Source: a virus
DNA: 62,723 nt
Direction: 5' to 3' (one strand)
Virus record (IMG/VR): IMGVR_UViG_3300028920_000026
Location: 128,001 to 190,723 of that record
Shown one piece after another: positions 4,491 to 23,819 of this stretch. The position numbers were made by a program, and so were the translations under genes. The notes under the pieces are model-generated. The model was not told the origin of the DNA, made no database searches, and saw only the letters and a program-made list of their open reading frames with translations. How positions within the stretch are numbered: the stretch's first letter is position 1; every line of letters starts with the position of its first letter.

Positions 4491-4752
4491 CCTCGTCGCG
4501 CGCTTCCTTCACGACCTTTACAAGAAGTACGACGATAGGTTCATTGCTAACGACCGGGTATTTTGAGACCTTGTCAATTTCAGCGTGGACCTTTATTAAG
4601 ACTTTCTTCGAACGTTCGAGAAAATCCTCCTCATCATTGCGCAGGTCCTCAAGCGAGAGCAAACGACCAGAAAGCCGCAAAGACGCGTTTGCTATAAAAA
4701 AAAGGAAGACCAACGTGATGATGTTTGTAACGATGAGGAGGGTGGTAAGCAT
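4399..4752 (-). CDS. Small membrane protein (one predicted N-terminal TM helix)
   Basis: An internal ATG at 4750-4752 overlaps the TAA stop of the upstream glycosyltransferase (TAATG). The hydrophobic stretch LLIVTNIITLVFLFFIANASL predicts one TM helix. Function unknown. Confidence 0.3.
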   Translation of the reverse strand: MLTTLLIVTNIITLVFLFFIANASLRLSGRLLSLEDLRNDEEDFLERSKKVLIKVHAEIDKVSKYPVVSNEPIVVLLVKVVKEARDEVASLLDDFAAEEEPDDRPNTNAFHGTNEGT

Positions 4753-5921
4753 TATGTCAGCTGCTCCTTGAATGTATCTTCGTATATGTTTGCGATCTTC
4801 TCGAAGCCGTACATGTTGAGCAGCTTGTTTTTGAGCGCCGCGGCCCATTCGTTCGGTTTTAACGAGTTATCGTAGAACTTTCGAACACGACGCTTGAAAT
4901 CAGCCTCAGAGGCTTCAGCCCACCTTGTACCAGGAACGAAGATCTTGTTGTCGATTCTTGAACTATGGATTTCCTTAAGATCATAGTGGACCTGAATAAA
5001 GCGTCCGTGCTTCATAAAGTCCATGTGTCCAGACCACGGTGTTGCGATAACAGGAAGCCCGCTGACCGCTGCTTCAAGGATAGGCAAACCATAACCTTCG
5101 CCACGAGTGATTGCAACGAGGGCTTTCACTGACGGGTGTCTGTAGATCGTGGCTACCTGTTCGTCCGTTAGGCTTCCATGTATGACATGGATTCGCGGGA
5201 ACTCTCCTACGCGGACCTCCTTGATCAGGTCTGTCGTCATCTGAAAGACGCGCTCGCGGTCAATTTTTGTGTTCCTTGCTGTGTTTGTTTTCAAAACAAT
5301 GCCCACATCAGGGTTGTCCTTGAACTCTTCACATAACCACCTGATCGTGAAGAAGATGTTCTTCCTGTCGTTGTATGGGTTCGTACCTGTGATTTGCCCA
5401 AACACCAGAAAGTTGTGTTTCGTTGACGTTTCACCGAGTGGACATTCAGGAAGCGCTTCATCCGGCAACGCGATCGAATCATGAAACGATTCTGGGATCA
5501 CATACATCGGAACTTTGACCTCGCCTGCATTCGTCAGAGACTTTGCCGAGTGTTCTGATGGGACGACGATTGCATCCATTGCATTGCAGTGATTCACCCA
5601 TTCTGGGCTTGCTCTGTCGGTTTCAACGGCCGCAGTGACACCAACGTTGAACTTTGCAATCTTGGGATCCCACTCGTTCGGCAGCTGGACCTGAAAACTA
5701 ACGTCTGCCTGCCCTTCCATCGGCTTAGAGAAGTTCATAAGTTTACCGATCAGCCCATTTTGGGCGTCCGGCGTGAGGTGCCATGGCGTGATCCCCCAAG
5801 GAAGTGCTCCGACGTAGAGGTCAATGTTGTTCCTTTCGACAAGCCATCGCGCGATCTGGCGCGAGTGCACCCCATAACCCGACTGCGTAAAAACCGGGCC
5901 TCTGATGAAAACCTTCTTCAT
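4752..5921 (-). CDS. Glycosyltransferase, GT4/GT1 (retaining GT-B) family
   Basis: The C-terminal EGYGLPILEAAVSGLPVIATPWSG matches the E-x7-E motif of GT4 enzymes. The start was trimmed to the ATG at 5919-5921, which overlaps the stop of the next GT. Confidence 0.65.
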   Translation of the reverse strand: MKKVFIRGPVFTQSGYGVHSRQIARWLVERNNIDLYVGALPWGITPWHLTPDAQNGLIGKLMNFSKPMEGQADVSFQVQLPNEWDPKIAKFNVGVTAAVETDRASPEWVNHCNAMDAIVVPSEHSAKSLTNAGEVKVPMYVIPESFHDSIALPDEALPECPLGETSTKHNFLVFGQITGTNPYNDRKNIFFTIRWLCEEFKDNPDVGIVLKTNTARNTKIDRERVFQMTTDLIKEVRVGEFPRIHVIHGSLTDEQVATIYRHPSVKALVAITRGEGYGLPILEAAVSGLPVIATPWSGHMDFMKHGRFIQVHYDLKEIHSSRIDNKIFVPGTRWAEASEADFKRRVRKFYDNSLKPNEWAAALKNKLLNMYGFEKIANIYEDTFKEQLT

Positions 5922-7159
5922 TAGAACTCCTTCGTCGTCCAGGGCGTGTAGCTCCAGTTTGCGATTGTGTGCTGCAGCGTCTCGTCCCAGCTTGTGACCA
6001 TCTGTTCGATCCTGTAGTCCCGGATGCAGTGTTCCCTGCACTTTTCGCCGAGCGCACGACGTTCGTCTGCACCGAATTCGTACATCTTCATGATCGCATC
6101 AGTGAACGTCTTGTTGCTGACAAAGTCCTCGTAGATGTACGGAATCATCTGGTTTCCAACACAACATCTGACCTCTGGATCGAGCGCGATTCCGTAGTTA
6201 AACCCATCGATGTGGTCCTCAACCTGTCTGCCAAGTCCACCAGTCTTGATCGCGATCGCTGGCGTACCTGCGAGCTTTCCTTCAAGGATCGGTAAACCGA
6301 AGCCTTCGTTGCACGATCTGTTCAGCTGTACGTCAGCGATGTTGTAGATGACATTCATCATGTCAAAGCCGATCCTGTCCTTCGAATAGGTGACGTTGTC
6401 CTTCACGCCCATCTTGTCTGTCACCTGGAACAGGTCGGAACCTTCCTTGTCTTTGGGATCGGTGTGAAGCAGCAACGTTGCCTTTCGATGACCATGATTC
6501 CTTTCAAGTTCATCGAGGAAGTCCTTCCACGATACGATGATGTCATTGACCATCTTACGACGAGCGTTCCTGCCGACGTACAGGGCGATGAAGTGATCCT
6601 CTCGTTCCTTGCCAAGCAGGTTGCGCTTGTGCATCTTGATGTCCTCTTCCGAGAGCGGCTTGTAGAGCTCTGACGGAACGGCATGAGGAACGTAGTGGGT
6701 GCGTTCTGGGAACCATGAACGCACCATCTCGTACGTTGGATAGTTGATGCAGTTGATCAGGTCGGTGCTTTCGTACAGCACACGGTTGAATTCTGGGCGT
6801 GGGTCATTGTCCCACAGGTGATTGTAGACGATGGGACAGATCTGGTGGATCTCGTCTTCCATCTCCCAGACCCACATGAAGAACCTCGGATCCGTGAACA
6901 GGAACAGCGCATCAGGCTTTTCTGAAACGAGTACCTGGCGCAGCATGTTCGGATTTCCGAACCCGTCGGTCGGCTTGATGATGAAGTCATCGTTCACGAC
7001 AACGGTTCTGTAGTCATCGTGTTTGATTGCCGCTCCGAAGCATCGAAACGAATAACGGCCTGTCTTCAACAGACCGTCGATCAACCACCTCGCCTGCGTA
7101 CCCACGCCGCTCGTAGAGAGAGGGTGGTCAGCCAACATCACGATCTTGGACTTTGGCAT
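5921..7159 (-). CDS. Glycosyltransferase, GT4/GT1 family
   Basis: The motif NEGFGLPILEGKLAGTPAIAIKTGG (E-x7-E) is present. The protein is 412 aa. Confidence 0.65.
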   Translation of the reverse strand: MPKSKIVMLADHPLSTSGVGTQARWLIDGLLKTGRYSFRCFGAAIKHDDYRTVVVNDDFIIKPTDGFGNPNMLRQVLVSEKPDALFLFTDPRFFMWVWEMEDEIHQICPIVYNHLWDNDPRPEFNRVLYESTDLINCINYPTYEMVRSWFPERTHYVPHAVPSELYKPLSEEDIKMHKRNLLGKEREDHFIALYVGRNARRKMVNDIIVSWKDFLDELERNHGHRKATLLLHTDPKDKEGSDLFQVTDKMGVKDNVTYSKDRIGFDMMNVIYNIADVQLNRSCNEGFGLPILEGKLAGTPAIAIKTGGLGRQVEDHIDGFNYGIALDPEVRCCVGNQMIPYIYEDFVSNKTFTDAIMKMYEFGADERRALGEKCREHCIRDYRIEQMVTSWDETLQHTIANWSYTPWTTKEF

Positions 7160-7243: not shown

Positions 7244-8167
7244 TTATATCTGTCTGTAGATGGAATCGCAGTGCTCGGTCCCAAAATAATCGCACCACTT
7301 GCAACCCGTCCTGTCCTTGATTGCAATACCGCGGTGGAGCGTGACAAGCATATCTTTGACGAGTTTGCCAGCTCGTTCCGACGTAATGTCACCGACTGAG
7401 ACCGGGAAGAAATCACACAGCGTTCCAGGCTTTCCTTCCCTTTTTAGGATGACAAACGCACACCTGACGTCCTTGAAGTTTGCACCTGTCTTCTGACACC
7501 AGAAGCGTTTGTAGAGGATGAGCTGGTTCTTGGTCATCACGTCCTGCTTCTTTTCCTTGAACCAACCACGCGTCGAAGTCTTCCAATCGATGAGCCACGT
7601 AAGCCGCTTCTTGCCGCGCTTGTCAAGGCACGTGATCACACCATCGATGAAGCCTTTAAACGCGTGTTCGAAGCCCTCGACCTGCTCGTAGAGCTGGTGT
7701 TCAGCCTCAACGAACTCCCAGTTCGGAAAGTTGTCATCCATGAACGCAGGTATCTCTGCGAGGATTGCTCGAGCCTGCTTCTTCCACGTTTCCCGCCCCT
7801 GTACAATGACTCTACCACGAGGCGTCTTGATGTCAACCTTTGAGAACGATTGTTTCCATTTCTCGAGGTCATCACCCGAGAGGACGTCCGATGGTGGGTT
7901 TGCTCGCATCTTGTCCCACATTTTGTCGATCATGTCAGTCGCAATCTCGACCTTCATCTTGCGCGTTTCGAGGAAGTCCTGCAGCGCAGCGTGAATGGCT
8001 GTTCCAAACAGTGCATGGACGTTTTGAACATACTTGTCGAGCTTGTCGATCTGGGCAAGCTTGTGTGCCCAGGTACATCCAAACCACATCGAGAGTTCAG
8101 AAAACGAGACGTGAGGTTTTCCAGTCGGAAGATTCACAAGGTTCAGCTTTACCTTCTTTTTTGTCAT
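7244..8167 (-). CDS. Cas4/RecB-family PD-(D/E)xK exonuclease with a 4-Cys Fe-S signature
   Basis: Motifs FKGFIDGV ... LIDWKTS ... QLILYKRFW (D, D-x-K, QxxxY) are present. The cysteines are one N-terminal Cys (FGCTW) and the C-terminal CKWCDYFGTEHC. The start was trimmed to the ATG at 8165-8167 because the first 26 codons of the track ORF are simply the reverse translation of the tRNA gene. Confidence 0.55.
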   Translation of the reverse strand: MTKKKVKLNLVNLPTGKPHVSFSELSMWFGCTWAHKLAQIDKLDKYVQNVHALFGTAIHAALQDFLETRKMKVEIATDMIDKMWDKMRANPPSDVLSGDDLEKWKQSFSKVDIKTPRGRVIVQGRETWKKQARAILAEIPAFMDDNFPNWEFVEAEHQLYEQVEGFEHAFKGFIDGVITCLDKRGKKRLTWLIDWKTSTRGWFKEKKQDVMTKNQLILYKRFWCQKTGANFKDVRCAFVILKREGKPGTLCDFFPVSVGDITSERAGKLVKDMLVTLHRGIAIKDRTGCKWCDYFGTEHCDSIYRQI

Positions 8168-8184
8168 CGTTCGTCCCCTTTCAG

Positions 8185-8739: not shown

Positions 8740-8743
8740 CTAC

Positions 8744-10788: not shown

Positions 10789-11211
10789 CTACGAACGCAT
10801 CTTAACTTCAATCGTCGACAGGTCGACTTCCTTTTGATCTGCCTGCTTTGCACGCTCTGCTCGTAGGTTGCGGAACCTGATCCCGCAGTAGATCATACCT
10901 CGGACAAGGACCGCTGCTGACTTTCTGAGCCCATGCAGCGCCTTTGGGACGACGACCGGAGACCCATGTCCCTGGTTGGATTCACCAGGATTGTCTGCCC
11001 AATCTGCTGCCGTTCTGTCCATGTAGACTCGAGCGAGGTTCAAGAACCTCGGCACGGTGCGTGCCTCGTCTGCTATGCGCCGTGGAAGGTCGTTTTGGTA
11101 CTCGAGTTCCGACCAGATCGCTTCGGTGGCCTGATCAAACTCTTCACGTGTGATTATTCGACTCATTGCTTGTTCTTTGCTGGATACAAGCACTTCGAAC
11201 ATGGACCACAC
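10789..11211 (-). CDS. Hypothetical protein (140 aa)
   Basis: ORF only. Confidence 0.3.
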   Translation of the reverse strand: MWSMFEVLVSSKEQAMSRIITREEFDQATEAIWSELEYQNDLPRRIADEARTVPRFLNLARVYMDRTAADWADNPGESNQGHGSPVVVPKALHGLRKSAAVLVRGMIYCGIRFRNLRAERAKQADQKEVDLSTIEVKMRS

Positions 11212-11981
11212 CTATGGCGTTCGCTCTGCCCAAAGAAGTCTGGTGGACAGACCATACGGCGATGTTCCTGAGAAAGGCCTTGCCACCACGAGTGATCCGT
11301 CATCTTTTCGAGCTTCTTGCCCGTCAGCTTGTCTTCACCGTCTCGAGCTCGCAGGTCGTAGTCTGGGAAGATGACTGACCCACTCGGCAGGTCGTCTGGA
11401 ACTGTTCCATCGCACGTGAGGTAGCAGATGCGAAGACCGGGCCAGCAGTCGTACAGTTCCTTTGCCTTTCTGTAGTTCCTTGAATCGGCAGAGAGGTTGA
11501 CTGCTAGATTCTTTGCGTCGAGGTCCTGCACAACGTCGAACGTTCGCGTGTAGATCCAGTGCCGCACGTTAGAAGAGAACTTTGCAACCTTTGCGATCCA
11601 ACGAGCGTGCCTGTCGTTCATTACGTCGCCGCTCACATGCCAGCGGAAACCGTCTGAGCAGTGTTCACCGATCCATGCTGCAAACGCTGCAGCTGTATCG
11701 TACATCGATGATTCTGACATGAGGATCCGGTGCATGACACGTTCGTTCTTGCAGTACTCGGCATACACCTCAGGCGCGTGCTTCTGCAGACCATACACGT
11801 AGCACGACTTCATGCAGTCCTCTGTTGCACCGGGACACGTTGAGATGTGTGGCAGGCTCAGCGCGTTCGGAACAGGCACCTCGTAAGAGCCATTGCCAAC
11901 AGTAATCTTGCTGTTCCCATCAACATAGAGCGAAAGCCCGTCACCGACATTGATCAGTTCCTTTACGTACGTCGTCGCCAT
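11163..11981 (-). CDS. Cys-rich hypothetical protein (272 aa)
   Basis: Long ORF with conserved-looking cysteine clusters (CPGATEDCMKSCY near the N-terminus; CGPCSKC at the C-terminus). No confident family assignment. Confidence 0.35.
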   Translation of the reverse strand: MATTYVKELINVGDGLSLYVDGNSKITVGNGSYEVPVPNALSLPHISTCPGATEDCMKSCYVYGLQKHAPEVYAEYCKNERVMHRILMSESSMYDTAAAFAAWIGEHCSDGFRWHVSGDVMNDRHARWIAKVAKFSSNVRHWIYTRTFDVVQDLDAKNLAVNLSADSRNYRKAKELYDCWPGLRICYLTCDGTVPDDLPSGSVIFPDYDLRARDGEDKLTGKKLEKMTDHSWWQGLSQEHRRMVCPPDFFGQSERHRCGPCSKCLYPAKNKQ

Positions 11982-12250
11982 TTCAAAACAACCTTCTTGA
12001 GAAGAATCCTCAACTTTTCAAAAATGCCCGCCTTGACGTCTGGAACTGTTCCACTTGAGAGCTTATCGCCTGAAGCTTCACCGGTAAGGCGGGCAAAGAC
12101 CTTTTCGAAGTTTTTGGAGTGACATTCCTCTGAGCAGAACCAAAGAGAACGTCCACGTCCACCTACCCAACAATTCTCATGTGGTCCAGTGATGAGCCTG
12201 CTGATGGAAAAATGTTTACCACAACCATTACACGGAAGATCATCAGTCAT
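11963..12250 (-). CDS. Small zinc-ribbon protein
   Basis: An internal ATG at 12248-12250 abuts the stop of the dehydrogenase gene. The protein carries CNGCGKH...C..EEC. Confidence 0.3.
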   Translation of the reverse strand: MTDDLPCNGCGKHFSISRLITGPHENCWVGGRGRSLWFCSEECHSKNFEKVFARLTGEASGDKLSSGTVPDVKAGIFEKLRILLKKVVLKWRRRT

Positions 12251-13226
12251 CTGAAACTGCGCGCCCAACCAGAAGTTCCCAGTCACGGTGTTCGGGAGGT
12301 CGAACCTCAAGGTTCTTCTTCATTGCGCCTTCAATAACGACAGGTTCTACACCGACCTGCCGCGCTACGTATGCAAGCGCGTTCATGTCCTTCGGGAAGC
12401 AGTGTCCCCCAAAGCCTCGAACATGCTTGCCGTCAACGACAACGGGACCAGGTACCGCCCAGTGCGAACCTCCGATGCGTTGATCGTACTTAACGTATTC
12501 AACGACCTTGTCGTAGTCAACGTTCAGGCCAAGCTTGTCAAGCGCGGTACAGATGTCGTACATCTCGTTTGCGAACGAGACCTTCGTGGCGAGAAAGCAG
12601 TTGATCGTGTACTTCACGAGCTCGGCCGTCGTCGAAGACGTCTTGATGATCGGAACCTTTGGGTACGCTGCTTGATACGTAAGCTTGACGTCATTGATCC
12701 AAGGACGCGGTCCACCGAGGATGATGCGTGTCTGGTTCAGAAAATCATCAATTGCATTCGCTTCAGTGAGAAATTCAGGATTGAAGATCACATGCAATCC
12801 GTATTTGTTGAACATCTCGTTCCAACGTTCCGTAGAACCAGGAGGACACGTTGATTTGACAACGGCAATGCGTTCACCGTCTACGCTTGCAAGCTCTTCA
12901 AGCACGGACTCAACGATGCGCGTATCTGCTGAACCATCCTTGCGCATCGGAGTAGGAACACCGACAAAGTAGATGCGAGTAAAGTCGATCTTTTCGTCGT
13001 TTTCGATCTTCTTGACAAACTCAGGTAGAGGCTTCACCTCATCGAAGCGCGGAACACCTTTTTTGTATGTCAAGGCGCCATTGATGATCTTGCCTCGGCG
13101 GCGTGGGTCAGCAACTTTTCCCGCCTTATCATAAGCATACACGTCAAATGCATGGCACATACCGACAGAAAGAGACCCACCCACAAAACCCTGTCCAATA
13201 CAGGCAATTGCTCGTTTGTTATTCAT
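12243..13226 (-). CDS. Nucleotide-sugar 6-dehydrogenase (UDP-glucose/GDP-mannose dehydrogenase family)
   Basis: The N-terminus has a Rossmann motif, IACIGQGFVGGS. NPEFLTEANAIDDFLNQTRIILGG matches NPEFLREG...DRIV.G. GFGGHCFPKD matches the catalytic-Cys motif GFGGSCFPKD. Confidence 0.65.
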   Translation of the reverse strand: MNNKRAIACIGQGFVGGSLSVGMCHAFDVYAYDKAGKVADPRRRGKIINGALTYKKGVPRFDEVKPLPEFVKKIENDEKIDFTRIYFVGVPTPMRKDGSADTRIVESVLEELASVDGERIAVVKSTCPPGSTERWNEMFNKYGLHVIFNPEFLTEANAIDDFLNQTRIILGGPRPWINDVKLTYQAAYPKVPIIKTSSTTAELVKYTINCFLATKVSFANEMYDICTALDKLGLNVDYDKVVEYVKYDQRIGGSHWAVPGPVVVDGKHVRGFGGHCFPKDMNALAYVARQVGVEPVVIEGAMKKNLEVRPPEHRDWELLVGRAVSDD

Positions 13227-13951: not shown

Positions 13952-14575
13952 CTACAAACGTACAAAAAATGCAAGTTCGCCACCGACCTGCTCAGCCGGT
14001 GTCTTGAGCGGTCGTGTACCATACCTGTAGTTCACGCCTTCTACGCTGATAGCTACACCTGTTTCTTTTGATAGTTCAGCTGAAACGTCTTCATCGGATG
14101 CATTCGACCTGGGCTGCATGAAGTCGAACACAGACGGGTCCTTTTCTGTAGGCTTCGCTTGGACGGGTAGGACTACGTAGACGCCTATCTTTGCGACCTG
14201 TAACATGCGTTTCAGCATCTCAGGAGCGTTGTTTGAGTGTTCCAACGAATGGCACGTATACACGATGTCATAGCTGTTTTCACCAAACCTATCAACGATG
14301 TCGTGCATGTCCATCTTGACGATGTACTCCTCAGGGGCATCAAGGAGGTCGAGTCCAAGCGCTTCGTACCCAGCGTCGCGGAAGTCCTTGACCTCGCTGA
14401 AGTGCCTCGCTCCGACACAGAGGATCGACTGTGCATCTGGTGCGATCTTCTTGAGCACCTTGATGTCGTGGACGCGGACATCGTGCCGGTTGACAGTCCT
14501 GTGTCGCGTCTTCTCGTGGCGATCTACCTGGATTCGCGTGTACTCGTCGTGCGATCCGTAACTGTACCTCTTCAT
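13952..14575 (-). CDS. Class I SAM-dependent methyltransferase
   Basis: ILCVGARHFSEVKDF (motif I-like) and DIVYTCHSLEH (motif II/III-like) are present. The protein is 207 aa. Confidence 0.5.
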   Translation of the reverse strand: MKRYSYGSHDEYTRIQVDRHEKTRHRTVNRHDVRVHDIKVLKKIAPDAQSILCVGARHFSEVKDFRDAGYEALGLDLLDAPEEYIVKMDMHDIVDRFGENSYDIVYTCHSLEHSNNAPEMLKRMLQVAKIGVYVVLPVQAKPTEKDPSVFDFMQPRSNASDEDVSAELSKETGVAISVEGVNYRYGTRPLKTPAEQVGGELAFFVRL

Positions 14576-14588: not shown

Positions 14589-15536
14589 TCAGCCGTTTAG
14601 GCATTGCTCGAACATCTTCCTGTATTGCGGCCACATGAGTTCGCGGCGCATGGTCCTGACGTTGTTGTACGCGACACCGATGTTTGGATCAGCATAAACG
14701 ACGTTCTCATGGATGCTTTCAGGCGCAAGCACCTGTTCAGCGATCCCGACGGGCGTGCTGACGATAGGTACACGCATCGCTGCAGCCTCGAGTATCGACT
14801 GCGGACCACCCTCGTGACGAGCAGTGACGAGATAGATGCTGCATGCCCTGTACATCGTTCTGATTGTCTCGAGTGGCGGGCGTTCGATGTACGTGTAGCC
14901 GATACCGACGCTATCGAGCCTGTTCATGATGTACTGACGACGCCATCCGCCGAGTAGCACACGCACCTTTTCAGGCGTTAATGATTCTTTAACGATGTGT
15001 TCTACAGCGTCACAGAACAGGTCTGGTCCTTTTTCGAGCTTCGGAGACTTCAGGTCGTGTCCCTCTGTGTCGCGCTGGAACGAACCAACGATGTACTCGT
15101 CCAGATTGAGGTTGAGTACTTCCCTTGCCACAAGCATGGCTTCCGTCTCCGTACCGACGACATCCGGTGGCGTCCAGAACTCGTCGTTGTACCAGTACCT
15201 CGTGACGACGATAGGCTTTGATGTCAGCCGCCTGATGAATTCTGCTGTCCTTTCATTGAAGCAGTGGTAGAGGTTCGTGACGGTGTCCCTCACGTAGAAG
15301 TCGCGCTTCTGCGCATGTCCAAACTTCTCAGGAACGATGTGATGGACAGTCGTGACGACCCTTTTTGACTGAAGATCGAACGGACTTACCTTGTCCCACG
15401 CCCAGTCTGCAAGCAACCAGATCACATCAGCTTCAGATGGACGATTGACGGCAATGTCTTGGTTTCCTTCGAACCATTCGTCGACCATGCGATCAACGAT
15501 CCAGTCCTCACCAGGAGGAAGCGCGTAGACCCTCAT
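14589..15536 (-). CDS. Glycosyltransferase (GT-B, GT4-like)
   Basis: VTARHEGGPQSILEAAAMRVPIVSTPVG is an E-x7-E-type motif. Confidence 0.55.
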   Translation of the reverse strand: MRVYALPPGEDWIVDRMVDEWFEGNQDIAVNRPSEADVIWLLADWAWDKVSPFDLQSKRVVTTVHHIVPEKFGHAQKRDFYVRDTVTNLYHCFNERTAEFIRRLTSKPIVVTRYWYNDEFWTPPDVVGTETEAMLVAREVLNLNLDEYIVGSFQRDTEGHDLKSPKLEKGPDLFCDAVEHIVKESLTPEKVRVLLGGWRRQYIMNRLDSVGIGYTYIERPPLETIRTMYRACSIYLVTARHEGGPQSILEAAAMRVPIVSTPVGIAEQVLAPESIHENVVYADPNIGVAYNNVRTMRRELMWPQYRKMFEQCLNG

Positions 15537-16513
15537 CGTGTGTTCTCCATGATCTTTGACAGTAAAAATTTTTCTAATTCACTGTCTGATAATGATTTTA
15601 CTTCAGAATAGTAGATCCTAATAAGCTTCATGTTCAACGATTTGAACAATTCATCTTGTACCTGATCTTTAGCTCGACGTTTTTGAGTATGTAAGTATTT
15701 TTTTGACGCTTTTGAAAGACCATGCCAAAATTCACCATCGTGTTCGATCCAAACATCAATTGATTTGATGTAAAAATCAACGGGATGTTTGTTGAACCAT
15801 TTTGGATGTTGAACATCATCATTTCCAAAAATTATCTGAAGTGCCTGCAGGATGCGTGCTTCAATCTTTGTTGTCTTAAACAGGTTGATACCTTTACGTT
15901 CCTTCGTTGCAAGCGCCTTTGCATTGACAACAGGATTTTGCATCGCATTTTTTGTTCCATATTTCTGTATGCACGTCGCCTCAATCTTTTCTTTTGCACC
16001 TGGCATTTGTGCAGGAGACTTCACACCGTGTTTTTCAAATGTTTCAAACGCTTTTTTGTGTGCCTTGTCTGCGAATTCTTTTACTTGAAGAGGATGTTCG
16101 ACTCCATAACGTTCTTTGAACGTTGAACGCATTGTGTTGATTGAAGATGTTCTGATCGTTTGATCACACATCGGATTTTCACCACCGTAACGTTCAACGC
16201 ATGTTTTACGACGTTTTTGTTCAATCATTGGTGATTGAATTGGACGCTCTGCGCCATAACGTTCAACATTTGTACGTTCCTGTGCATTGCACAACACTCC
16301 ACCTTTTTTACGAGCGTTTAATACACACCGTGTATTGCAAAAATGTAACCTAGACCTAGAACCTTTGAGACGATGTGTTCTCGTAAATTCCTGTTTGCAT
16401 TGATCACATTTATAAACATAGACGTTACGTTTGCATTTGCGTTGCGCTGAATTTACATATGTTTCCTTATCGATTCTTAAGAGCATACGATAGAATGTCC
16501 TCATACGCCTCAA
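15533..16513 (-). CDS. Putative homing endonuclease / DNA-binding protein with five tandem ERYG-type repeats and a C-terminal nuclease-like domain
   Basis: The N-terminus has a zinc ribbon, CDQCKQ...C. The repeats are VERYGAERPIQSP, VERYGGENPMCDQ, KERYGVEHPLQVKEF, FEKHGVKSPAQMPG and IQKYGTKNAMQNPVV. The C-terminal ...DFYIKSIDVWIEHDGEFWHG... resembles Vsr/PD-(D/E)xK-like nucleases. It is inserted between two glycosyltransferase genes. Confidence 0.4.
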   Translation of the reverse strand: MRRMRTFYRMLLRIDKETYVNSAQRKCKRNVYVYKCDQCKQEFTRTHRLKGSRSRLHFCNTRCVLNARKKGGVLCNAQERTNVERYGAERPIQSPMIEQKRRKTCVERYGGENPMCDQTIRTSSINTMRSTFKERYGVEHPLQVKEFADKAHKKAFETFEKHGVKSPAQMPGAKEKIEATCIQKYGTKNAMQNPVVNAKALATKERKGINLFKTTKIEARILQALQIIFGNDDVQHPKWFNKHPVDFYIKSIDVWIEHDGEFWHGLSKASKKYLHTQKRRAKDQVQDELFKSLNMKLIRIYYSEVKSLSDSELEKFLLSKIMENTR

Positions 16514-17453
16514 CTACGTATTTGATGTCAACAATAGAACCCATTGCGTATCGTTGCGCGGAATCAAAATCCTTCCAGACGATGTCTTGCTCGACGATAA
16601 TGTCCGGTGGATTATCGTAGTCACGAAGAGTATAGTCATATGCAACTTGTTCCTGTAGCAAAATTCCATTCACTCCTACGAGTTCACGAGTGCCTCCGTC
16701 TGATGTGTGGATAACAGGACATCCACACCCAAGTGATTCAACGACTGTATTCGGTGAATGATCCAACCACGCAAGATGAATCATATAGTCTGCCTGTGAA
16801 TAGACCTGTAGGCATGCCTCGTGAGAGATGCTGCCGGCGTAGAAGATCGATGGTTTGATGTATCTATCGACGGATCTTAACGCCGCAGCGTCAGCGTTGT
16901 TTCCCAGGATCAGCAACCCGGCGTTTGGAAATTTCGTACGCTTCAGGTGTTGAAAAAATTCAACGTTTGCCTTGAGGCGCTTCTGAGGGTGCCAGTTCGA
17001 TGAACAGACAAAAAGCTTATCAAAATCATTGCGTAGGTTCTGAAGTGATACCTGTTGTTGCTGTGTGAGGGCTGTTCTGATCTCGAGCGGATCGATCCCG
17101 TTGTGAATCACTGCGTCGTATTTGTGCTCGCCCCACCAACCTGTGACCTGCTTCCTGTTGAACTCCGACTGAAACACGACCGCCGTTGCAGCATCATAGG
17201 TCCTCTTGATGCCCACGTTCTTCACAGAAAACTCGTCTGGTTTGAACCAGATACCATCAAGACGTTGCACGAATGGTTTGCTCGTGTCCAACCGTGGGCT
17301 CTGTTCGATGAACACGATTGCAACATCGTAGTCATCTGGATCTGCGAGAATGTGTCCACGGTTTGCAAGCGCCTTAGCGAGGCGCTTTGCGAACGAGTTT
17401 GGTCCCGATCGCGATGACATGTCTACGTTGTCAAAGTAGATTTTCAATTCCAT
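16467..17453 (-). CDS. Glycosyltransferase (GT-B fold, GT1/GT4-like)
   Basis: 328-aa ORF. GCGCPVIHTSDGGTRELV resembles the C-terminal donor-binding region of GT-B enzymes. Confidence 0.45.
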   Translation of the reverse strand: MELKIYFDNVDMSSRSGPNSFAKRLAKALANRGHILADPDDYDVAIVFIEQSPRLDTSKPFVQRLDGIWFKPDEFSVKNVGIKRTYDAATAVVFQSEFNRKQVTGWWGEHKYDAVIHNGIDPLEIRTALTQQQQVSLQNLRNDFDKLFVCSSNWHPQKRLKANVEFFQHLKRTKFPNAGLLILGNNADAAALRSVDRYIKPSIFYAGSISHEACLQVYSQADYMIHLAWLDHSPNTVVESLGCGCPVIHTSDGGTRELVGVNGILLQEQVAYDYTLRDYDNPPDIIVEQDIVWKDFDSAQRYAMGSIVDIKYVVEAYEDILSYALKNR

Positions 17454-17828: not shown

Positions 17829-18215
17829 TTATGAACGTTTCTTGATTACTGCAACAATTTCCGCGAGTACTGGCGTTCCATGCAGGAGGACACCACACAG
17901 GGCGAGCTCTGACGTGGGCATGTCATCATGTTTCACACGTTCAGTAAAGATGTTCGGATTGAGCTCATCTCTTCCATTGATGGAAACCATATCATAGTAT
18001 GCCTGCGCGACAAAGTTGATGCCCTTGTCTGTGATGCCGTTCTTCAGTGTTGGAATCATCAGGACTATCTCTTGAAGCGCAAGAAAGATGTCCTGATAGA
18101 TCAGTGTACAGCTTTCCTTGTCGGATGGGTCATGACCCCGATGCTTTTGTAACTTTGCCTCAATCGCCCTCTTGACGGCGTCTTCAATCTGCTTATGTGT
18201 GATCTGCGTTCCCAC
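17829..18215 (-). CDS. Hypothetical protein (128 aa)
   Basis: ORF within the glycosyltransferase cluster. Confidence 0.3.
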   Translation of the reverse strand: MGTQITHKQIEDAVKRAIEAKLQKHRGHDPSDKESCTLIYQDIFLALQEIVLMIPTLKNGITDKGINFVAQAYYDMVSINGRDELNPNIFTERVKHDDMPTSELALCGVLLHGTPVLAEIVAVIKKRS

Positions 18216-19203
18216 TTGTCACCGCCTTTATGAATTCACAGTATCGTTCGATGCACGTTTGCCAATCGATGAGCGTGTCCTTGCTTGGAACGGTCCATGA
18301 ACCAGCAGTGAGCTTTTCAACTAGTTCTTCAAACGAATCATACAACAAACACTCATCATTGCCAACAAATTCCGGCCCAGCGCCTCCGTCTCGACGGACG
18401 AATGTAGGCATGTCGCATGCAATCGCCTCTAGAACGTGGTTCGGTCCTGGTTCTGCACGTGACGCAGAGACGTACACATCATACCTACCGAGCTCGTTAC
18501 CAAGGGCTTTTCCATAAAGCGGCTTGATGACCTTTGTATTCTTGAACGTACCTCGATCTCGTCCGATGTAGGTGAATGTGAAGCCTGGATTCTGTCCGAT
18601 CCACTCATCAAGTTGATTGTAGATGTCAAAACCCTTCAATTCATGGTTCGACCAATGATGGGTTACGATGTTGTTTTTATCATTGTCGATCGCGTCTTGG
18701 CATCGAAAGACATCGCGGTCCACGCCATTCCTGACGACGGTCGTTTGCTTGCACGCCCACCCGTCGTTCCTTGTGAAGTAGTCTTTGATGTACTCGCTTA
18801 CAAAGATCGTTCCGTCGATGTACCTGCTTGCAGTACGCCAGTTTGCATCAACGTGGTTTGTTCCCTTTCTTGCATCGTTCTCGTTGACACGAAGAAACAG
18901 CGGAACATTGATTCCGAACTGTGACTGGAACATCTTGTACTGCACGAGCTGCTGCAGCCCAGCACCAAGCGTCTGCTGATCAGTCTCCAGCCCGATCAAG
19001 AGCGCGGCGTCAGGTGCAGTGTTGTGATCCTGTGGACTGATGATCTCAACGTCAAACTTTTCGGCGTATTTGAAAAGGGCCTTGACAAACATGTTTCCGC
19101 CGCCCCACGGCCCTCGAACAGGCGCTCTATTCACGTAGAGTTTCATTGTCATGCGTCTTTGTTGTCCATTGATGTCACAAGCTTGGTGTAATATTCCTGC
19201 CAC
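18193..19203 (-). CDS. Glycosyltransferase (GT4-like)
   Basis: EPGPNHVLEAIACDMPTFVRRDGGAGPEFVG is an E-x7-E-like donor-binding motif. Confidence 0.5.
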   Translation of the reverse strand: MAGILHQACDINGQQRRMTMKLYVNRAPVRGPWGGGNMFVKALFKYAEKFDVEIISPQDHNTAPDAALLIGLETDQQTLGAGLQQLVQYKMFQSQFGINVPLFLRVNENDARKGTNHVDANWRTASRYIDGTIFVSEYIKDYFTRNDGWACKQTTVVRNGVDRDVFRCQDAIDNDKNNIVTHHWSNHELKGFDIYNQLDEWIGQNPGFTFTYIGRDRGTFKNTKVIKPLYGKALGNELGRYDVYVSASRAEPGPNHVLEAIACDMPTFVRRDGGAGPEFVGNDECLLYDSFEELVEKLTAGSWTVPSKDTLIDWQTCIERYCEFIKAVTSGNADHT

Positions 19204-19206: not shown

Positions 19207-19485
19207 CTAATCGTCGTTCCTTGCCATGTCACGCATCGTGTTTAGAGATTCCTCGCCATCGATCCAGACGAGTGCCTGGACGAATCCTAACCATCTCATT
19301 GCCTTTTCGATGTGATCCTCTGCAACGAATTCAACGATCCTGTCACACATCCACGCCGCATGCGGGTAGACCTCGTCGGGATCTGGATGTCCGACCTCGT
19401 CGTACGATTCAACAGGCATCTGCTGAGGGTTTGGAAGGAGTGTCTTATAGTGAGCAGCTAGCTCGAGAACCTTTTCTTTTGTCAT
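19207..19485 (-). CDS. Hypothetical protein (92 aa)
   Basis: Small ORF coupled between two glycosyltransferase genes. Confidence 0.3.
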   Translation of the reverse strand: MTKEKVLELAAHYKTLLPNPQQMPVESYDEVGHPDPDEVYPHAAWMCDRIVEFVAEDHIEKAMRWLGFVQALVWIDGEESLNTMRDMARNDD

Positions 19486-20243
19486 ATTACGTATCCTCTG
19501 CGACGAAGGAATTGAGCCTCGTCGCGTTGGAACCTTGCATCATCTGTTTGGTACGTTTCCGGTACATCTTCGATGGTATAGTGGTACATCACACGTGGTA
19601 GAAATACGCGCTTGCCGGCATTTCTTAACACTGGCAAGTAGATCGCTTGGTCACCCGCACGCTGAATGTATTCTCCATCCTCACCGCGAAAGTTTTCGTC
19701 ACATACATCGTTGAGCAAACGCTTTTTGAACGTCTTTAGGTGGCTTGTGACCCAAGGATGTACGTATGGATCTGCATCGTCAGGAAGCGGTCCACTGATA
19801 TTCTTGTCACTGTAACCCCACCTGTGTGCTGTCCACAACGCATTGCACTTAGTATCATTGTACGCTTCATTGATGATGTGCAATGCGTCGAGGTCGACCA
19901 ACCAATCGTCTGCGTCGATGCGACAGACGATGTCCTCATCGCAGCACGCTTCGTTTATTCCGTAAATGACATTTGCAACTTCCCACTTCTTTTCGCTGTT
20001 CCACTTCACTTTTAAGTGTCGACAACCTTGATCACGTAGCGATCTGAACCTCGTGATGACTCGAGCCTCCTCCTCGCGTTCGTTAGGACTCGAAAGATCA
20101 TCTATGAGATAGAGCATCCACTTTGAATAAGACTGCCCGTACAGCGAATGTAGTAGCCTAGGAAGCGTCGCACTAGCATTGTACATCGGCGCGATGAAGA
20201 CGAATCTATTCTCACGTCGTGTGATGTCTGTGAAGTTTACCAT
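19482..20243 (-). CDS. Glycosyltransferase family 2 (GT-A fold)
   Basis: FIAPMYNASATLPRLLHSL...LIDDLSSP matches the GT2 N-terminal pattern, and RIDADDW is the DXD motif. ATGA coupling links it to the upstream gene. Confidence 0.6.
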   Translation of the reverse strand: MVNFTDITRRENRFVFIAPMYNASATLPRLLHSLYGQSYSKWMLYLIDDLSSPNEREEEARVITRFRSLRDQGCRHLKVKWNSEKKWEVANVIYGINEACCDEDIVCRIDADDWLVDLDALHIINEAYNDTKCNALWTAHRWGYSDKNISGPLPDDADPYVHPWVTSHLKTFKKRLLNDVCDENFRGEDGEYIQRAGDQAIYLPVLRNAGKRVFLPRVMYHYTIEDVPETYQTDDARFQRDEAQFLRRRGYVI

Positions 20244-20938
20244 GGCATCTCGAGGTCAGATGATTGTACGACGAACTGTCCATAGTTGACTGTCTTATCA
20301 ATCCTGTCGTCAGGATATAGCTGTCTGTCCATGACAACGAGTTCGGCATCGAGTCCGGACTGTGCGACAGCCCTACGAACATCTTCACTGTTGTGATCAT
20401 CGATGATTATGAACTTAGCCCAGCGATTCTTTACAAGTTCAATGTCAGCGCTGATGCCATTGAATGATGAATCTCCATCAACAATCACGATATCAAACTT
20501 TTCAGGTTCCTTGAGTTCATGTGTAAGCACAGCATCGCTGGTACCGCGAAAGAACTTGATGAGCTTGAACCAGTCACCTGGAAACGTTTTCGTCATCATG
20601 TCGCAGTATTCTTTTGTGATCTGTGGATCGATCGTACAGATCGATCCATCGTAACCTGCGTCCGACATTGCTCGAGCTGCGCACAGAGTCGAATATCCAC
20701 GACCGGTTCCGATTTCAAGCACACTCTTGCACTCAAACTGCCTGATCATGTAGTAAAGAAGGATACCGCGCTCGTAGTTTGCGCGAAAGAACGCTCCGCG
20801 GGCTGCGTAGTCTGGATTATCGCGGTCTCGTTGTTGTTTCGCGGTCAGTTCACCGATGAAGTCAAAATCACCGAGGTTTACGCCGGCAAGCGTAACGTCG
20901 AACTCTACTAGCTTATCCTTGATGTTTGTCGTCTTCAT
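20237..20938 (-). CDS. Class I SAM-dependent (sugar O-) methyltransferase-like
   Basis: VLEIGTGRGYSTLCAARAM is motif I and FDIVIVDGDSS is the acidic motif. The start was trimmed to the ATG at 20936-20938, which overlaps the TGA stop of the upstream GT2 gene (ATGA). Confidence 0.55.
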   Translation of the reverse strand: MKTTNIKDKLVEFDVTLAGVNLGDFDFIGELTAKQQRDRDNPDYAARGAFFRANYERGILLYYMIRQFECKSVLEIGTGRGYSTLCAARAMSDAGYDGSICTIDPQITKEYCDMMTKTFPGDWFKLIKFFRGTSDAVLTHELKEPEKFDIVIVDGDSSFNGISADIELVKNRWAKFIIIDDHNSEDVRRAVAQSGLDAELVVMDRQLYPDDRIDKTVNYGQFVVQSSDLEMPW

Positions 20939-21876
20939 TCGTCTATCTCCGAAACAGGTCCCTCGACCATGACCTTGCTCTGTGGGTACTTTAGCGGGTC
21001 TCCAGAACTGTCGAGAGGAAGTTCCCAACCCGCTGGAAACGCGACCATTCCGAACGACACAGGGTGCGAAAGCTGCATCAACAGATCCCATGTGTCGTTT
21101 ACGAGTGGATTGTAAACAAGGCGTTCGCCATTTACAGCACCCTGGTAGTACCCGTAGCGCTTGCCGCCTCTCATGAATGCGTATCCACCTCGAGGATCGT
21201 TCCAGATCGGGAGGAAGATAGGAACATGGTGTGTTGCTGAGATTGGTGTATGTTCGTTGTGATAGTCGATCTGTTTTTTGACAGCCTGGTCGTACCAATC
21301 CTCAGAACGTCCCCAGTACTCCTGCGTCTGGGGCCAGTTTGTCGGGTATGGTCCGAGTTCATCGAACACGTTTGTCTTGAAGAACCCCATCGTGTGGAAG
21401 TGGTCGTCGGTGTACCTCCAGAACCTGTGTCCTGCGAACGATGCTTCGTCCTTGACAACCTTTGATTTGAGCGTTGAACACCTGACTCCGTTCGCAGTCA
21501 AACACATGTATGGGCTCTGTCGGAGCGCCTTGGCATACTGTTCGATCGCACCAGTGGGTCCGATGTACTGTAGGTCGTCCTGCAAGAACAGAATGATGTC
21601 GTGTTTTGCACGTTCGATGATGATGTTCTTTGCGATGTATTCGTCGTTCGTCCAGTTCGATTCACCGTACGCACCGCGAACGATTGCCTCATTAATCCAC
21701 ACACGTTTACATTCATATATGTGTTTGTGTAGGACTTGGTGAACCAGCTGTTCTGTTGAGCAGTTGTCGACGATGACGACCTGATGCATTCCACAAATTA
21801 CTTCGTCGCGAAGCGATTCAAGCAGGACGTCTAAGTACTTGCCCCTGTTGAAGCTCGTGATGCCGATCGTGATCAT
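20935..21876 (-). CDS. Glycosyltransferase family 2-like
   Basis: MITIGITSFNRGKYLDVLLESL is a GT2-type N-terminus, and VDNCS is an acidic motif. The start was trimmed to the ATG at 21874-21876, which overlaps the stop of the upstream GT. Confidence 0.5.
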   Translation of the reverse strand: MITIGITSFNRGKYLDVLLESLRDEVICGMHQVVIVDNCSTEQLVHQVLHKHIYECKRVWINEAIVRGAYGESNWTNDEYIAKNIIIERAKHDIILFLQDDLQYIGPTGAIEQYAKALRQSPYMCLTANGVRCSTLKSKVVKDEASFAGHRFWRYTDDHFHTMGFFKTNVFDELGPYPTNWPQTQEYWGRSEDWYDQAVKKQIDYHNEHTPISATHHVPIFLPIWNDPRGGYAFMRGGKRYGYYQGAVNGERLVYNPLVNDTWDLLMQLSHPVSFGMVAFPAGWELPLDSSGDPLKYPQSKVMVEGPVSEIDE

Positions 21877-23819
21877 CTCATGAGTTCCGGTTGGCTCATC
21901 TCTATCTTGATGTGAGGTAGGCACTGACCTTCCCACTTTCTATGGAAGATCCACCCACCAGTCTCTGTGGCGAGTGCCTTTGCCTTTTTAGCAATCATCT
22001 CGTCAGTCACTTCTGACCACGGAACGTCAAAGAAGTTGTTGTTTTCTGCAGTGTCTTCAACCGATTTGTTGAAAAGCGCGTTCCAGTGGTTCTGCCAATA
22101 GTCACGGTACAGCTTGATCTTGCGTTCGATGTCGTACCAGCTGTAGTGGAACACGCCAGGGAGATCTTGCAGGATCTTGTTTAGAAGGCCTTCGTACTGA
22201 CCTTTTGCGGTTGGATCACTGAAAAGTACAGCTCTTCGCAACTTCTCGAAGTCTTGGGTCCAAAAGTTTAGGTGTGGAATCGGATCGCCTGTTTCTGTAT
22301 GGATCATATCGCATCCGTCGGTTCCTTCAAGGGCATACAACTCGCCGCTATCGTCATACATTCGAAGTTGCTTTGGAATTCCGTGCGTGATGTACGGTTT
22401 GTTTCGTGAAAGGCGCCACTTCCACGGTGTCGCATCAACACGTACCTTGTCAGACCCACCCCAATACTCGACAACAGGTAGACACACGATATCAATGCCC
22501 TTCGTGATCGACCTGCATAGCTCCTTGACCTTCGACGCATGAGATTCGTGTACGACCTCATCGCTGTCCTGCTGCCAACAGAACTCTTGTGTACACATCT
22601 TTCGTGCCTCTGCCTTCTGCACGCCGTCAAAGACCGCGTGGCGAGGATGAGACCAATCACGTTTGATTTGCTTGACATTTACCCTATTGATGATGTTCCC
22701 ATCATTCTGATGAACATGTTCTGCTGCAATGCGCAATAATACTTCCCACGTTCCGTCAGTCGATCCACCGTCAACAACACAGACTTCGTCACAGAACTGA
22801 AGCATTGACCTGATCGATTGCTCGAACGGATATTCTTGGGAAACACAGTTGTATGTTGTCGTGTAACCGGAGATTGTGGGCTCGTACTCGATGAACGCCT
22901 TGATGCAGTTCCAAAACACCCCACGAGCTGCATAGAGGTATTGCTCGATTGACTCAATGTCGTCGGTTGCAAACCATTCTTCGTCCTTGTGTTGAACGTT
23001 TGAATTAAGTTCAAGTTCGCAGCCAAGAAGTTTGGCTTCAATAACCATCCTGGGACACGTGTCGCCTCCTTCAGGGAGGTAGACGAATCCCTTTGCGGTT
23101 GCGAGTTTCTCGAGTACTTCGTTATATGGAACATTCCACAGCTGTTCGTGTTCGTATCCTTTTTTAAGACAGAAATCCCTGGCTGCCTTGGCAGCCTTGA
23201 TCCAACTGGGAGAATTGAGGGTGATCCACTTCTTTCGCTCTTTTCCTGAATGCTTCTCGCGAAGCAGCTTGATGCTCGCGAACGTTGCATCGTCGAAGAC
23301 AGAACTGAGGACTACGTTGTCCTTTTCTTCGAGGAATGGGAAGCGATCGTGATATCGCTTCATCTGGGTTTCAGACATCCAAAAAATTCCCATTGCACCG
23401 TAGTAGAATGCAGATGTCATCTTTCCATGCATCTGGTTTGCGCAGTCGCACGGTACGCCTTCCTGGTGCATATGAAGCTCAGTTGACCTGAACCGACAGA
23501 ACTTGTAGTCGTACTCAAGCACGGCGTACTGCATGTTCCCGACGATGGATGGGATCAACCTGATGTCCATCTGTGTCCAGTTACCGAATATCCAGAACCT
23601 GTCGTGTCCCTTTTGCAGAAGTTCGATCGTGACGTCCTTTGATTTGACTCTAAACACTTTGAACGGGCTGGAGTCTATGAGTGCTTGTGTCGTGAGTTCA
23701 GCTCCACCGACGTATTCATCAACGAACATGTCTGCAACAAAGATGATCTGGACATCGGGTGGGATCTCGTTCTTTGGAGGTTCAGGTACGGCAAATGGGC
23801 TTTCAAATGGTGTGAACAT
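21873..23819 (-). CDS. Large multidomain glycosyltransferase (contains a GT2/GT-A domain)
   Basis: 648 aa. FCDEVCVVDGGSTDGTWEVLLRIAAE is the GT2 (D)DGSTDGT signature. Additional N-terminal domains are uncharacterised. Confidence 0.55.
   Translation of the reverse strand: MFTPFESPFAVPEPPKNEIPPDVQIIFVADMFVDEYVGGAELTTQALIDSSPFKVFRVKSKDVTIELLQKGHDRFWIFGNWTQMDIRLIPSIVGNMQYAVLEYDYKFCRFRSTELHMHQEGVPCDCANQMHGKMTSAFYYGAMGIFWMSETQMKRYHDRFPFLEEKDNVVLSSVFDDATFASIKLLREKHSGKERKKWITLNSPSWIKAAKAARDFCLKKGYEHEQLWNVPYNEVLEKLATAKGFVYLPEGGDTCPRMVIEAKLLGCELELNSNVQHKDEEWFATDDIESIEQYLYAARGVFWNCIKAFIEYEPTISGYTTTYNCVSQEYPFEQSIRSMLQFCDEVCVVDGGSTDGTWEVLLRIAAEHVHQNDGNIINRVNVKQIKRDWSHPRHAVFDGVQKAEARKMCTQEFCWQQDSDEVVHESHASKVKELCRSITKGIDIVCLPVVEYWGGSDKVRVDATPWKWRLSRNKPYITHGIPKQLRMYDDSGELYALEGTDGCDMIHTETGDPIPHLNFWTQDFEKLRRAVLFSDPTAKGQYEGLLNKILQDLPGVFHYSWYDIERKIKLYRDYWQNHWNALFNKSVEDTAENNNFFDVPWSEVTDEMIAKKAKALATETGGWIFHRKWEGQCLPHIKIEMSQPELMR

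Follow-up and report, generated by a model that had tools for sequence, protein, structure and literature searches.

A conserved glycosyltransferase cassette in an uncultured jumbo-phage lineage and its possible role in glycosylation of virion proteins

A stretch of DNA of 62,723 nucleotides (IMG/VR virus record IMGVR_UViG_3300028920_000026, positions 128,001–190,723), called here the window, represents 62.7 kb out of the approximately 331-kb genome of an uncultured phage. Between positions 4752 and 23819 its minus strand carries a block of eight glycosyltransferase (GT) genes with nine GT domains, two methyltransferases dependent on S-adenosylmethionine (SAM) and one homologue of UDP-sugar 6-dehydrogenases, which were registered by the Pfam scan of all open reading frames (ORFs) of at least 90 amino acids (aa) within positions 1–25200. 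Five of the GT genes are GT-B/GT4-like, two belong to GT2 and one encodes a 648-aa fusion of GT-B and GT-A domains. Thus, the original prediction, made from the letters of the window, placed GTs correctly at all eight coordinates it listed, family models of GT-A or GT-B type matched the ORFs it had named, and its “at least 9” holds for domains, while the “ten genes” it spoke of are eight. The tight coupling that it described was seen at seven junctions, ATGA at six and TAATG at one, and the minus-strand genes run uninterrupted by a strand switch from 23819 to 178. Since nine GT domains, two methyltransferases and the dehydrogenase homologue are co-stranded and translationally coupled, we infer that these enzymes act in one pathway and, likewise, how large its glycan would be. 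Approximately one third of the span 4752–23819 is occupied by genes unrelated to glycans. Below we describe a conserved core and a variable periphery of this cassette, and on this basis tentatively assume that it glycosylates structural proteins of the phage’s own virion.

The first gene of the block, which encodes the fusion GT, is the hallmark of the lineage. At E ≤ 1e-5 a collection of 5.8 billion proteins contains 2,711 homologues of its product, of which the best 120 are all 56–68% identical to it, many of them on contigs of 150–350 kb. As relatives we used 79 IMG/VR loci compared by tblastn of the window proteins; a set of 49 loci comprises those that contain the full-length fusion GT and at least 8 kb downstream of it. 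The recurring gene order starts with PhoH, a helicase, ClpP, a 163-aa protein and a chaperonin-like gene, after which the cassette follows as fusion GT, O-methyltransferase, GT2 19482, GT-B 18193, the 128-aa protein 17829, GT-B 16467 and GT-B 14589 (genes are designated by their first coordinate). At least four further GT genes of the window types are retained in the same order in 29 of the 49 loci. For loci possessing all three genes the median identity to the window proteins was 55.6% for the fusion GT, 55.5% for PhoH and 46.9% for the helicase. Judged by sequence identity, core GTs evolve like genes of the phage backbone, the fusion GT matching PhoH in conservation and surpassing the helicase. 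Collinearity with the window extends over the entire 4752–23819 in a relative of 309 kb, including a PD-(D/E)XK nuclease gene followed by GT 5921 (62%) and GT 4752 (58%). In a distant group (loci L060–L077) the N-terminal domain of the fusion occurs by itself and the GT types of the window are all contiguous, the order being PhoH, PD-(D/E)XK, 5921, 4752, the N-terminal domain of 21873, 19482, 16467, 14589 and the dehydrogenase. This contiguity suggests that insertions have split a single ancestral cassette into the two GT sub-clusters seen in the window. Core enzymes so well conserved point to an acceptor that is itself conserved and encoded by the phage, rather than to variable host glycans.

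The periphery of the cassette behaves in another way. We clustered 1,422 ORFs surrounding it in the 79 loci and scanned the cluster representatives, which revealed many tailoring enzymes absent from the window. NDP-sugar 4,6-dehydratases/epimerases were found in 53 of the 79 loci, DegT aminotransferases in 21 + 9 and sugar-1-phosphate nucleotidyltransferases in 7 + 5, while a carbamoyltransferase, a GFO/IDH/MocA oxidoreductase and a GNAT acetyltransferase were each registered in seven. Additional GTs belong to GT11 (7 loci), GT15 (6), extra GT2 (8) and Glyco_trans_1_2 (10), and HAD-cupin (6), DUF2334 (7) and MptE/CST-I-like (5) proteins complete this set. One source of the relatives is Hainich groundwater. 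The GT cassette of relatives also holds an Endonuclease VII gene and a gene of the Acb5 family, so that counter-defence genes seem to have been inserted into the block there.

That the locus is phage-borne, as originally predicted, follows from the recurrence of its gene order in 79 viral contigs, which are as long as 369 kb, and from the nature of its flanks. The window encodes a large terminase of T4 type, a fused SbcD-SbcC, a ClpP-like protease, a helicase, PhoH, a late-sigma-like protein and a weak chaperonin homologue; the helicase shares approximately 30% identity with its counterparts in Bacillus phage G and in uncultured phages with genomes of 0.6–0.7 Mb. Proteins identical to those of the window occur on a 142.8-kb Logan contig and a 331-kb contig. 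Among 185,579 bacterial and archaeal species, represented by one genome each, the fusion GT matched only two contigs of metagenome-assembled genomes (MAGs). One, of 13 kb, comes from a Gammaproteobacteria MAG and has the same neighbours; the other, of 45 kb, comes from a Bdellovibrionales MAG and matches by the C-terminal domain only. Both look like binned phage DNA. The even GC content along the window (0.42–0.53), phage genes in the flanks, an order recurring in relatives and a fusion GT almost absent from cellular genomes rule out that the locus is a piece of host DNA or a chimera. Neither megablast of the 19-kb block nor tblastn of the fusion GT and GT 14589 gave a match among 50,697 phage records, so that no sequenced isolate of the lineage is contained in this collection.

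Membrane components are almost missing from the cassettes. In the whole window the hydropathy scan found no ORF with at least three predicted membrane helices, and in the 79 relatives only one of the 1,422 ORFs reached this number (in locus L062; seven helices, no Pfam match). By the same scan of helices, the window and the 79 cassettes contained no initiating polyprenyl-phosphate transferase of the WecA/WbaP type and no flippase, polymerase or ABC permease. The lack of an exporter and of a polyprenyl-phosphate transferase, noticed earlier for the window, thus extends to the cassettes of the lineage. What was found there is a set of soluble viral GTs with no lipid-carrier or export components, as expected for glycosylation of virions, and not the gene set of a Wzx/Wzy- or ABC-dependent O-antigen or capsule locus. 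Nevertheless, cytoplasmic assembly, to which this absence had been taken to point, is not implied by it, since the window comprises 62.7 of the 331 kb and exporters could be supplied by the host.

If virion proteins are indeed the target, soluble GTs of Leloir type, dependent on nucleotide sugars, would assemble up to approximately nine sugars into an oligosaccharide in the cytoplasm of the infected cell, and the two SAM-dependent methyltransferases (O- in one case) would decorate it. The conserved core consists of the fusion GT, GT2 19482, GT-Bs 18193, 16467 and 14589 and the pair 5921/4752, vertically inherited as a part of the jumbo-phage backbone. Each phage surrounds this core with its own tailoring genes: in the present case with one more GT2, another methyltransferase and the two-domain dehydrogenase, in relatives with dehydratases, aminotransferases, nucleotidyltransferases, acetyl- and carbamoyl-transferases and further GT families. 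Sugars would then be transferred straight onto one or several virion proteins in the cytoplasm, bypassing both lipid carrier and export. We prefer this reading because of the conserved core with its variable periphery, the absence of membrane components and the presence of multi-domain fusion enzymes; the neighbouring genes for the ClpP-like protease and the chaperonin-like protein were also counted in its favour. Several circumstances speak against it. No acceptor protein is recognisable by sequence and no recognisable structural gene adjoins the cassette, the large ORFs downstream having no family assignment. The view is limited to 62.7 kb of a 331-kb genome, and the argument taken from Flavobacterium phage vB_FspM_immuto (immuto; see below) rests on three homologous genes with identity of 23–30%. 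Besides, such clusters are usually interpreted in the field as a means of modifying lipopolysaccharide (LPS) or O-antigen of the host.

The latter interpretation is the main rival. It supposes that the GTs extend or rebuild a lipid-linked glycan of the host, such as the LPS core or O-antigen, capsule, or a precursor of exopolysaccharide (EPS) on undecaprenyl phosphate, using the initiating transferase, flippase and ligase of the host, and that the purpose is to block superinfection or to free progeny from debris. This is the standard explanation for multi-GT clusters of cyanophages and pelagimyophages. It agrees with the sub-threshold NCBIfam matches of the window proteins, which point to enzymes of EPS and teichuronic acid synthesis, and the hypervariable tailoring genes recall the diversity of O-antigen loci. 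The gap in export functions is not decisive here, since the host has an exporter and soluble GT4 and GT2 enzymes can act on lipid-linked intermediates of the host. However, surface-conversion genes are usually accessory and host-specific, while core GTs of this lineage are conserved like replication genes across a deep group presumably infecting different hosts. The near absence of membrane proteins in 79 cassettes also speaks against envelope remodelling, and the fusion GT, almost missing from cellular genomes, is no recent capture from an LPS locus of the host. On balance, remodelling of the host envelope seems possible and yet doubtful.

It is improbable that the product of the cassette is soluble or lipidic, i.e. 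a free oligosaccharide, a glycolipid or a glycosylated small molecule serving as compatible solute, signal or metabolic sink. The O-methyltransferase does belong to the CCoAOMT type, which acts on small molecules, and several GT-B domains match small-molecule enzymes (sucrose-phosphate synthase, BshA, MshA and trehalose-P synthase), but matches of the latter kind are generic for the GT4 fold. Nine GT domains combined with varying enzymes for deoxy- and amino-sugars would better suit a heteropolysaccharide, and a precedent was not found in the literature searched.

Hypermodification of DNA, where a hydroxylated or hydroxymethylated pyrimidine would bear an oligosaccharide protecting from restriction, appeared to be the least likely of the three targets suggested originally and very improbable as such. 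Glycosylation of phage DNA is known for alpha- and beta-GTs of T4, for polyarabinosylated 5-hydroxycytosine (5hoC) of RB69 and DLP3 and for glycans on 5-hydroxymethylcytosine (5hmC) described by Pyle et al. The clusters responsible attach one to three sugars to 5hmC or 5hoC. They resemble the block under study in that they use the same folds, GT4-like GT-B and GT-A, with up to three successive GTs, and that uronic acids have been seen on DNA; moreover, the pair 5921/4752 is preceded by a nuclease gene and in Rhodothermus phage RM378 is located among replication genes. The difference is that known DNA-glycan clusters adjoin a ThyA homologue or a pair of cytosine C5-methyltransferase (C5-MT) and 5mYOX, together with nucleotide kinases, and contain no more than three GTs, so that nine GT domains are far above any known DNA glycan. 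No families of ThyA-like hydroxylases or hydroxymethylases, C5-MT or 5mYOX were found by Pfam in the window ORFs scanned. When the flanks of the cassettes (1.6 Mb) were searched by tblastn with E. coli ThyA, nothing appeared below E = 3; this search was of limited sensitivity and 5mYOX was not searched in relatives. Phage immuto carries a homologous unit of nuclease and two GTs along with more GTs, and the nucleosides of its DNA, digested and analysed by liquid chromatography with ultraviolet and mass-spectrometric detection, were dA, dC, dT and fdPreQ1 replacing dG, with no glycosylated nucleoside reported (PMC10516641). Bases without sugars in a phage sharing this unit argue against DNA as the target.

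Returning to the genes of the block, the fusion GT (21873..23819, minus strand as all genes of the block) combines an N-terminal GT4-like GT-B domain with the D-x7-E motif and a C-terminal GT-A domain of GT2 type with DGGSTDGT and DSD, where Glycos_transf_2 matched residues 321–462 with 29 bits. The next gene (20935..21876) encodes a GT2 enzyme of 313 aa (Glycos_transf_2, 33 bits) and is a variable member, with ATGA overlaps on both sides and homologues in 5 of the 49 loci. GT2 19482 (19482..20243, 253 aa, 41 bits for the same family) belongs to the core, being present in 40 of the 49 loci with identity up to 68%; a sequence search of the PDB gave no match for it. Membership in GT-A/GT2 is indicated by Glycos_transf_2 scores above threshold for the three domains and by motifs of the DxD type, DAD and DSD, which were recorded in two of the three where they had been announced.

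Among the GT-B enzymes, all of which show the two-Rossmann-domain GT-B fold, the protein of 319 aa encoded at 18193..19152 is borderline: Glyco_trans_1_2 (26.9 bits at a cut-off of 25) was the only family passing the threshold, and Glycos_transf_1 scored 26.2 bits. Nevertheless, it is a core member with homologues in 32 of the 49 loci. Two other core genes encode a protein of approximately 327 aa (16467..17453; Glycos_transf_1, 53.5 bits; 37 of the 49 loci) and one of 315 aa (14589..15536; Glyco_trans_1_4, 47.9 bits; 30 of the 49 loci, 46% identity). The remaining two constitute a conserved pair linked by the TAATG junction. Its first member (5921..7159, 412 aa; Glycos_transf_1, 40.8 bits) is 62% identical to its counterpart in locus L088 and 26–32% identical to those in immuto, Mel-JY01, RM378 and LR756508; for the second one (4752..5921, 389 aa; 30.1 bits for Glycos_transf_1 at a cut-off of 26.4) identity is 58% in L088 and 29–34% in immuto and Mel-JY01. 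The E-x7-E motif, which had been ascribed to GTs 4752, 5921, 14589 and 18193, is present in all four, the variants being EGYGLPILE, EGFGLPILE, EGGPQSILE and, in GT 18193, EPGPNHVLE. GT 16467, as well as the N-terminal domain of the fusion, has D-x7-E instead. The small-molecule enzymes listed above are the closest structural or family matches of several GT-B domains, and viral fold matches include multi-domain GT fusions from giant viruses and uncultured phages. In NCBIfam both GTs and methyltransferases match below threshold only and at the superfamily level, so that no specific sugar or acceptor is assignable.

Both methyltransferases expected from the original prediction proved to be real. 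The enzyme of 233 aa encoded at 20237..20938 is a cation-dependent, CCoAOMT-like SAM O-methyltransferase of family 3 (Methyltransf_24 and Methyltransf_3). Its length corresponds to the public gene call, which gives 233 rather than 353 aa, its PDB matches are family-3 O-methyltransferases, and it is kept in 25 of the 49 loci. The second one, a class I SAM methyltransferase of 207 aa (13952..14575), was matched weakly, by Methyltransf_11 with 25.5 bits, which is above the cut-off, and Methyltransf_23 with 25 bits. A sequence search of the PDB gave no match for it, and with no homologue in any of the 79 loci it is specific to this phage among those compared.

The homologue of NDP-sugar 6-dehydrogenases (12243..13226, 327 aa) has turned out to be unusual. 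Its N-terminal and central domains (PF03721, 80.9 bits, and PF00984, 79.8 bits) and the GFGGHCFPKD motif with the catalytic Cys are present as anticipated, whereas the C-terminal UDP-binding domain PF03720 is not, the protein ending approximately 50 residues past the catalytic Cys. GxGxxG takes the form GQGFVG, and the motifs GFGGHCFPKD, NPEFL and K..N..K align with the structure of UDP-glucose dehydrogenase 3vtf. Alignment in the PDB search reaches residues 24–313 of a 444-aa archaeal enzyme, and the NCBIfam model is covered from position 2 to 295 of 413 with a score of 186.4, just below the cut-off of 189.8. In the structural model (pLDDT, a predicted local confidence score, of 89.6) all top-ranked matches are three-domain dehydrogenases of 425–467 aa. 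Among the best 120 homologues listed most have 304–352 aa and four have 404–478 aa, many reside on jumbo-size contigs, and none contains PF03720; in one relative no separate ORF of PF03720 type was found within 10 kb of the dehydrogenase. The protein thus represents a real conserved two-domain family, and not an artefact of truncation; it is a relative of the UDP-glucose/GDP-mannose 6-dehydrogenase family rather than a canonical member. The proposal that the glycan contains uronic acid keeps the status of a hypothesis, being based on a dehydrogenase devoid of the UDP-binding domain. One can imagine that this enzyme oxidises an already attached hexose to uronic acid instead of acting on UDP-sugar, and that an abundant, global lineage of jumbo phages glycosylates its virions independently of lipid carriers, producing a conserved inner and a fast-evolving outer glycan as an equivalent, among viruses of bacteria, of glycosylation in chloroviruses and mimiviruses, but taken in full this scenario is rather unlikely. 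As separate observations, the enzyme has an extra beta-hairpin inserted at approximately residues 36–64, and in relatives an NAD+ salvage pair of NAMPT and Nudix genes lies beside the dehydrogenase, the Nudix gene of L089 also having a cytidylyltransferase-like domain; this pair and the Endonuclease VII and Acb5 genes mentioned above were noticed at 11551–13942 of L088 and 13841–14532 of L083.

The span 4752–23819 includes a number of genes that the original prediction had left unmentioned: a PD-(D/E)XK nuclease, an HNH endonuclease, a PTH2-like protein, a tRNA, a GP88-family protein, a NUMOD3/TnsA-like protein and a DUF7487 protein, with several ORFs of no family in addition. The Cas4/RecB-like PD-(D/E)XK nuclease (7244..8167, Pfam PDDEXK_1) is a synteny anchor directly upstream of the pair 5921/4752. 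It precedes this pair also in loci L059–L077 and L088 and in phages immuto and Mel-JY01, and in RM378 its position is occupied by a gene annotated as “similar to DNA polymerase I”. The 128-aa protein encoded at 17829..18215 has no Pfam family, and in 28 of the 49 loci its homologue is flanked by the same two GTs as in the window. The DUF7487 zinc-finger protein (15533..16486), with homologues in 2 of the 79 loci, is probably a mobile insertion outside the pathway. The NUMOD3/TnsA-like homing endonuclease (13223..13861; NUMOD3, 55 bits) is absent at this site in relatives and does not belong to the pathway. These two endonuclease-like genes within the GT run are read as insertions because they have almost no counterpart there in relatives. 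No homologue of the GP88-family protein (11163..11981; PF17338, 95 bits), which bears Cys clusters CPGATEDCMKSC and CGPCSKC, was found in the 79 loci. The HNH/C2H2 endonuclease (8239–8739, minus strand) is also of homing-endonuclease type.

Altogether at least six homing-endonuclease-like genes (HNH, GIY-YIG, NUMOD3, TnsA-like and DUF7487) are present in 62.7 kb and two of them interrupt the GT cassette. Three lie on the minus strand (8239–8739, 13223–13861 and 15533–16486) and are absent or nearly absent in the 79 related loci, the others being on the plus strand (42593–43297, 45507–46478 and 49048–50055). Between the PD-(D/E)XK and HNH genes the minus strand encodes a well-formed tRNA (8184–8259; Rfam, 63.7 bits) with the anticodon UUA, i.e. 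an ochre (UAA) suppressor. Recoding of TAA, which such a tRNA brings to mind, was ruled out for the window, where this codon terminates 18 of 63 genes and the read-through lengths look random. A 265-aa ORF (9597–10394, minus strand) has no family, ends in an Ala/Thr-rich C-terminal tail AAEAAVLAAAAAAADPTWHAAPTAATAATTAYAATNSAW and is overlapped by three ORFs of 93–153 aa on both strands, which makes its coding status uncertain. Outside the block, the plus-strand gene 55285–58455 encodes the fused SbcCD of 1,056 aa, with an N-terminal calcineurin-like phosphoesterase (SbcD-like) and SMC/AAA_23 segments (SbcC-like). Between the helicase and PhoH the plus strand encodes a 75-aa product (29754–29981) with the chlamydial histone-H1-like Hc1 domain (PF07432), and a gene with this domain is found at the same place in the groundwater relative L083 (3186–3413). 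A promoter-like motif ACGTATATTTRTGC noticed upstream of three plus-strand genes showed no enrichment over shuffles and was dropped.

Comparison with systems already described does not support the impression that the locus is exceptional in kind, since multi-GT clusters with sugar-nucleotide enzymes are known in cyanophages, pelagimyophages and moraphages. Cyanophage P-SSM2 has a cluster of 15 genes and for jumbo phages “at least eight GT families” have been reported; pelagimyophages contain GT-rich host-recognition clusters including UDP-glucose 6-dehydrogenase. Moraphages, for which RM378 served as a reference phage in the paper describing them, are mostly freshwater, have genomes of 200–307 kb, PhoH and four core GT orthogroups, and RM378 carries a GT similar to 5921; the present lineage may belong to moraphages or be their sister group. 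The aquatic myophage clusters are all alike in combining many GTs with sugar-nucleotide enzymes in large phages. However, in cyanophages and pelagiphages they are described as sporadic and hypervariable, while here the core is conserved like PhoH, and neither a GT-B+GT-A fusion nor a two-domain dehydrogenase is mentioned in the papers on P-SSM2, pelagimyophages and moraphages. GT clusters of large aquatic phages are routinely labelled as “LPS genes”, and in a study of groundwater viromes (PMC12960796) contigs longer than 100 kb with GT or nucleotide-sugar genes were discarded, being regarded as probable genomic islands. The whole lineage, whose relatives were assembled from Hainich groundwater, the site of that study, would be lost through this filter. 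Conservation typical of the backbone rather than of a sporadic island makes a role intrinsic to the phage, for instance a glycan coat of the particle, a serious possibility. If this is true, adsorption, evasion of grazing and of host recognition, and persistence in water would be affected.

It is known that particle proteins of chloroviruses, mimiviruses and some mycobacteriophages are glycosylated in the cytoplasm without lipid carrier or export. Capsid glycans of chloroviruses consist of a conserved core with variable decoration, to which the cassette of the window, with its conserved core and hypervariable periphery, may be likened. Chlorovirus PBCV-1 and mimivirus also resemble it in encoding soluble GT-A and GT-B enzymes, including fusions, methyltransferases and sugar-nucleotide enzymes with no lipid-carrier or export genes. 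They differ in having eukaryotic hosts and known acceptors (major capsid protein, fibrils), and there is no sequence orthology with GTs of the window. Closer to the phage world, capsid and tail proteins of mycobacteriophages are reported to be O-glycosylated by the phages’ own GTs (Freeman et al. 2023, as cited in the moraphage paper), and in Xanthomonas phage XacN1 virion glycoproteins were detected, its own GTs being thought to glycosylate capsid and tail proteins. Both XacN1 and mycobacteriophage Maravista manage with two GTs, in contrast to eight GT genes of the window, and tblastn of three window GTs gave no match in XacN1 or mycobacteriophages.

Among cultured phages, immuto possesses the PD-(D/E)XK nuclease gene followed by two GTs, 30% identical to 5921 and 29% identical to 4752, and in the stretch viewed downstream a further four genes are annotated as GTs, accompanied by aminotransferases, a methyltransferase and an epimerase. 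In both immuto and the Microcystis phage Mel-JY01, for which no literature was found, homologues of the PD-(D/E)XK nuclease (23–28%) precede the GT pair, a GT2, a methyltransferase and further GTs. These two phages and RM378 differ from the present lineage by genomes of 130–190 kb and, according to tblastn, lack the fusion GT, 14589, 16467 and 18193. Since immuto and Mel-JY01 share a part of the module, the question of the target is directly testable. In comparison with all these systems, four features are new: a core which over thousands of contigs shows the conservation of a replication gene; the GT-B+GT-A fusion as the hallmark of this core; an ancient unit of a gene followed by two GTs common to cultured phages, with PD-(D/E)XK in the upstream position in immuto and Mel-JY01; and the family of two-domain dehydrogenases, which in this shortened form is an enzymological puzzle in its own right.

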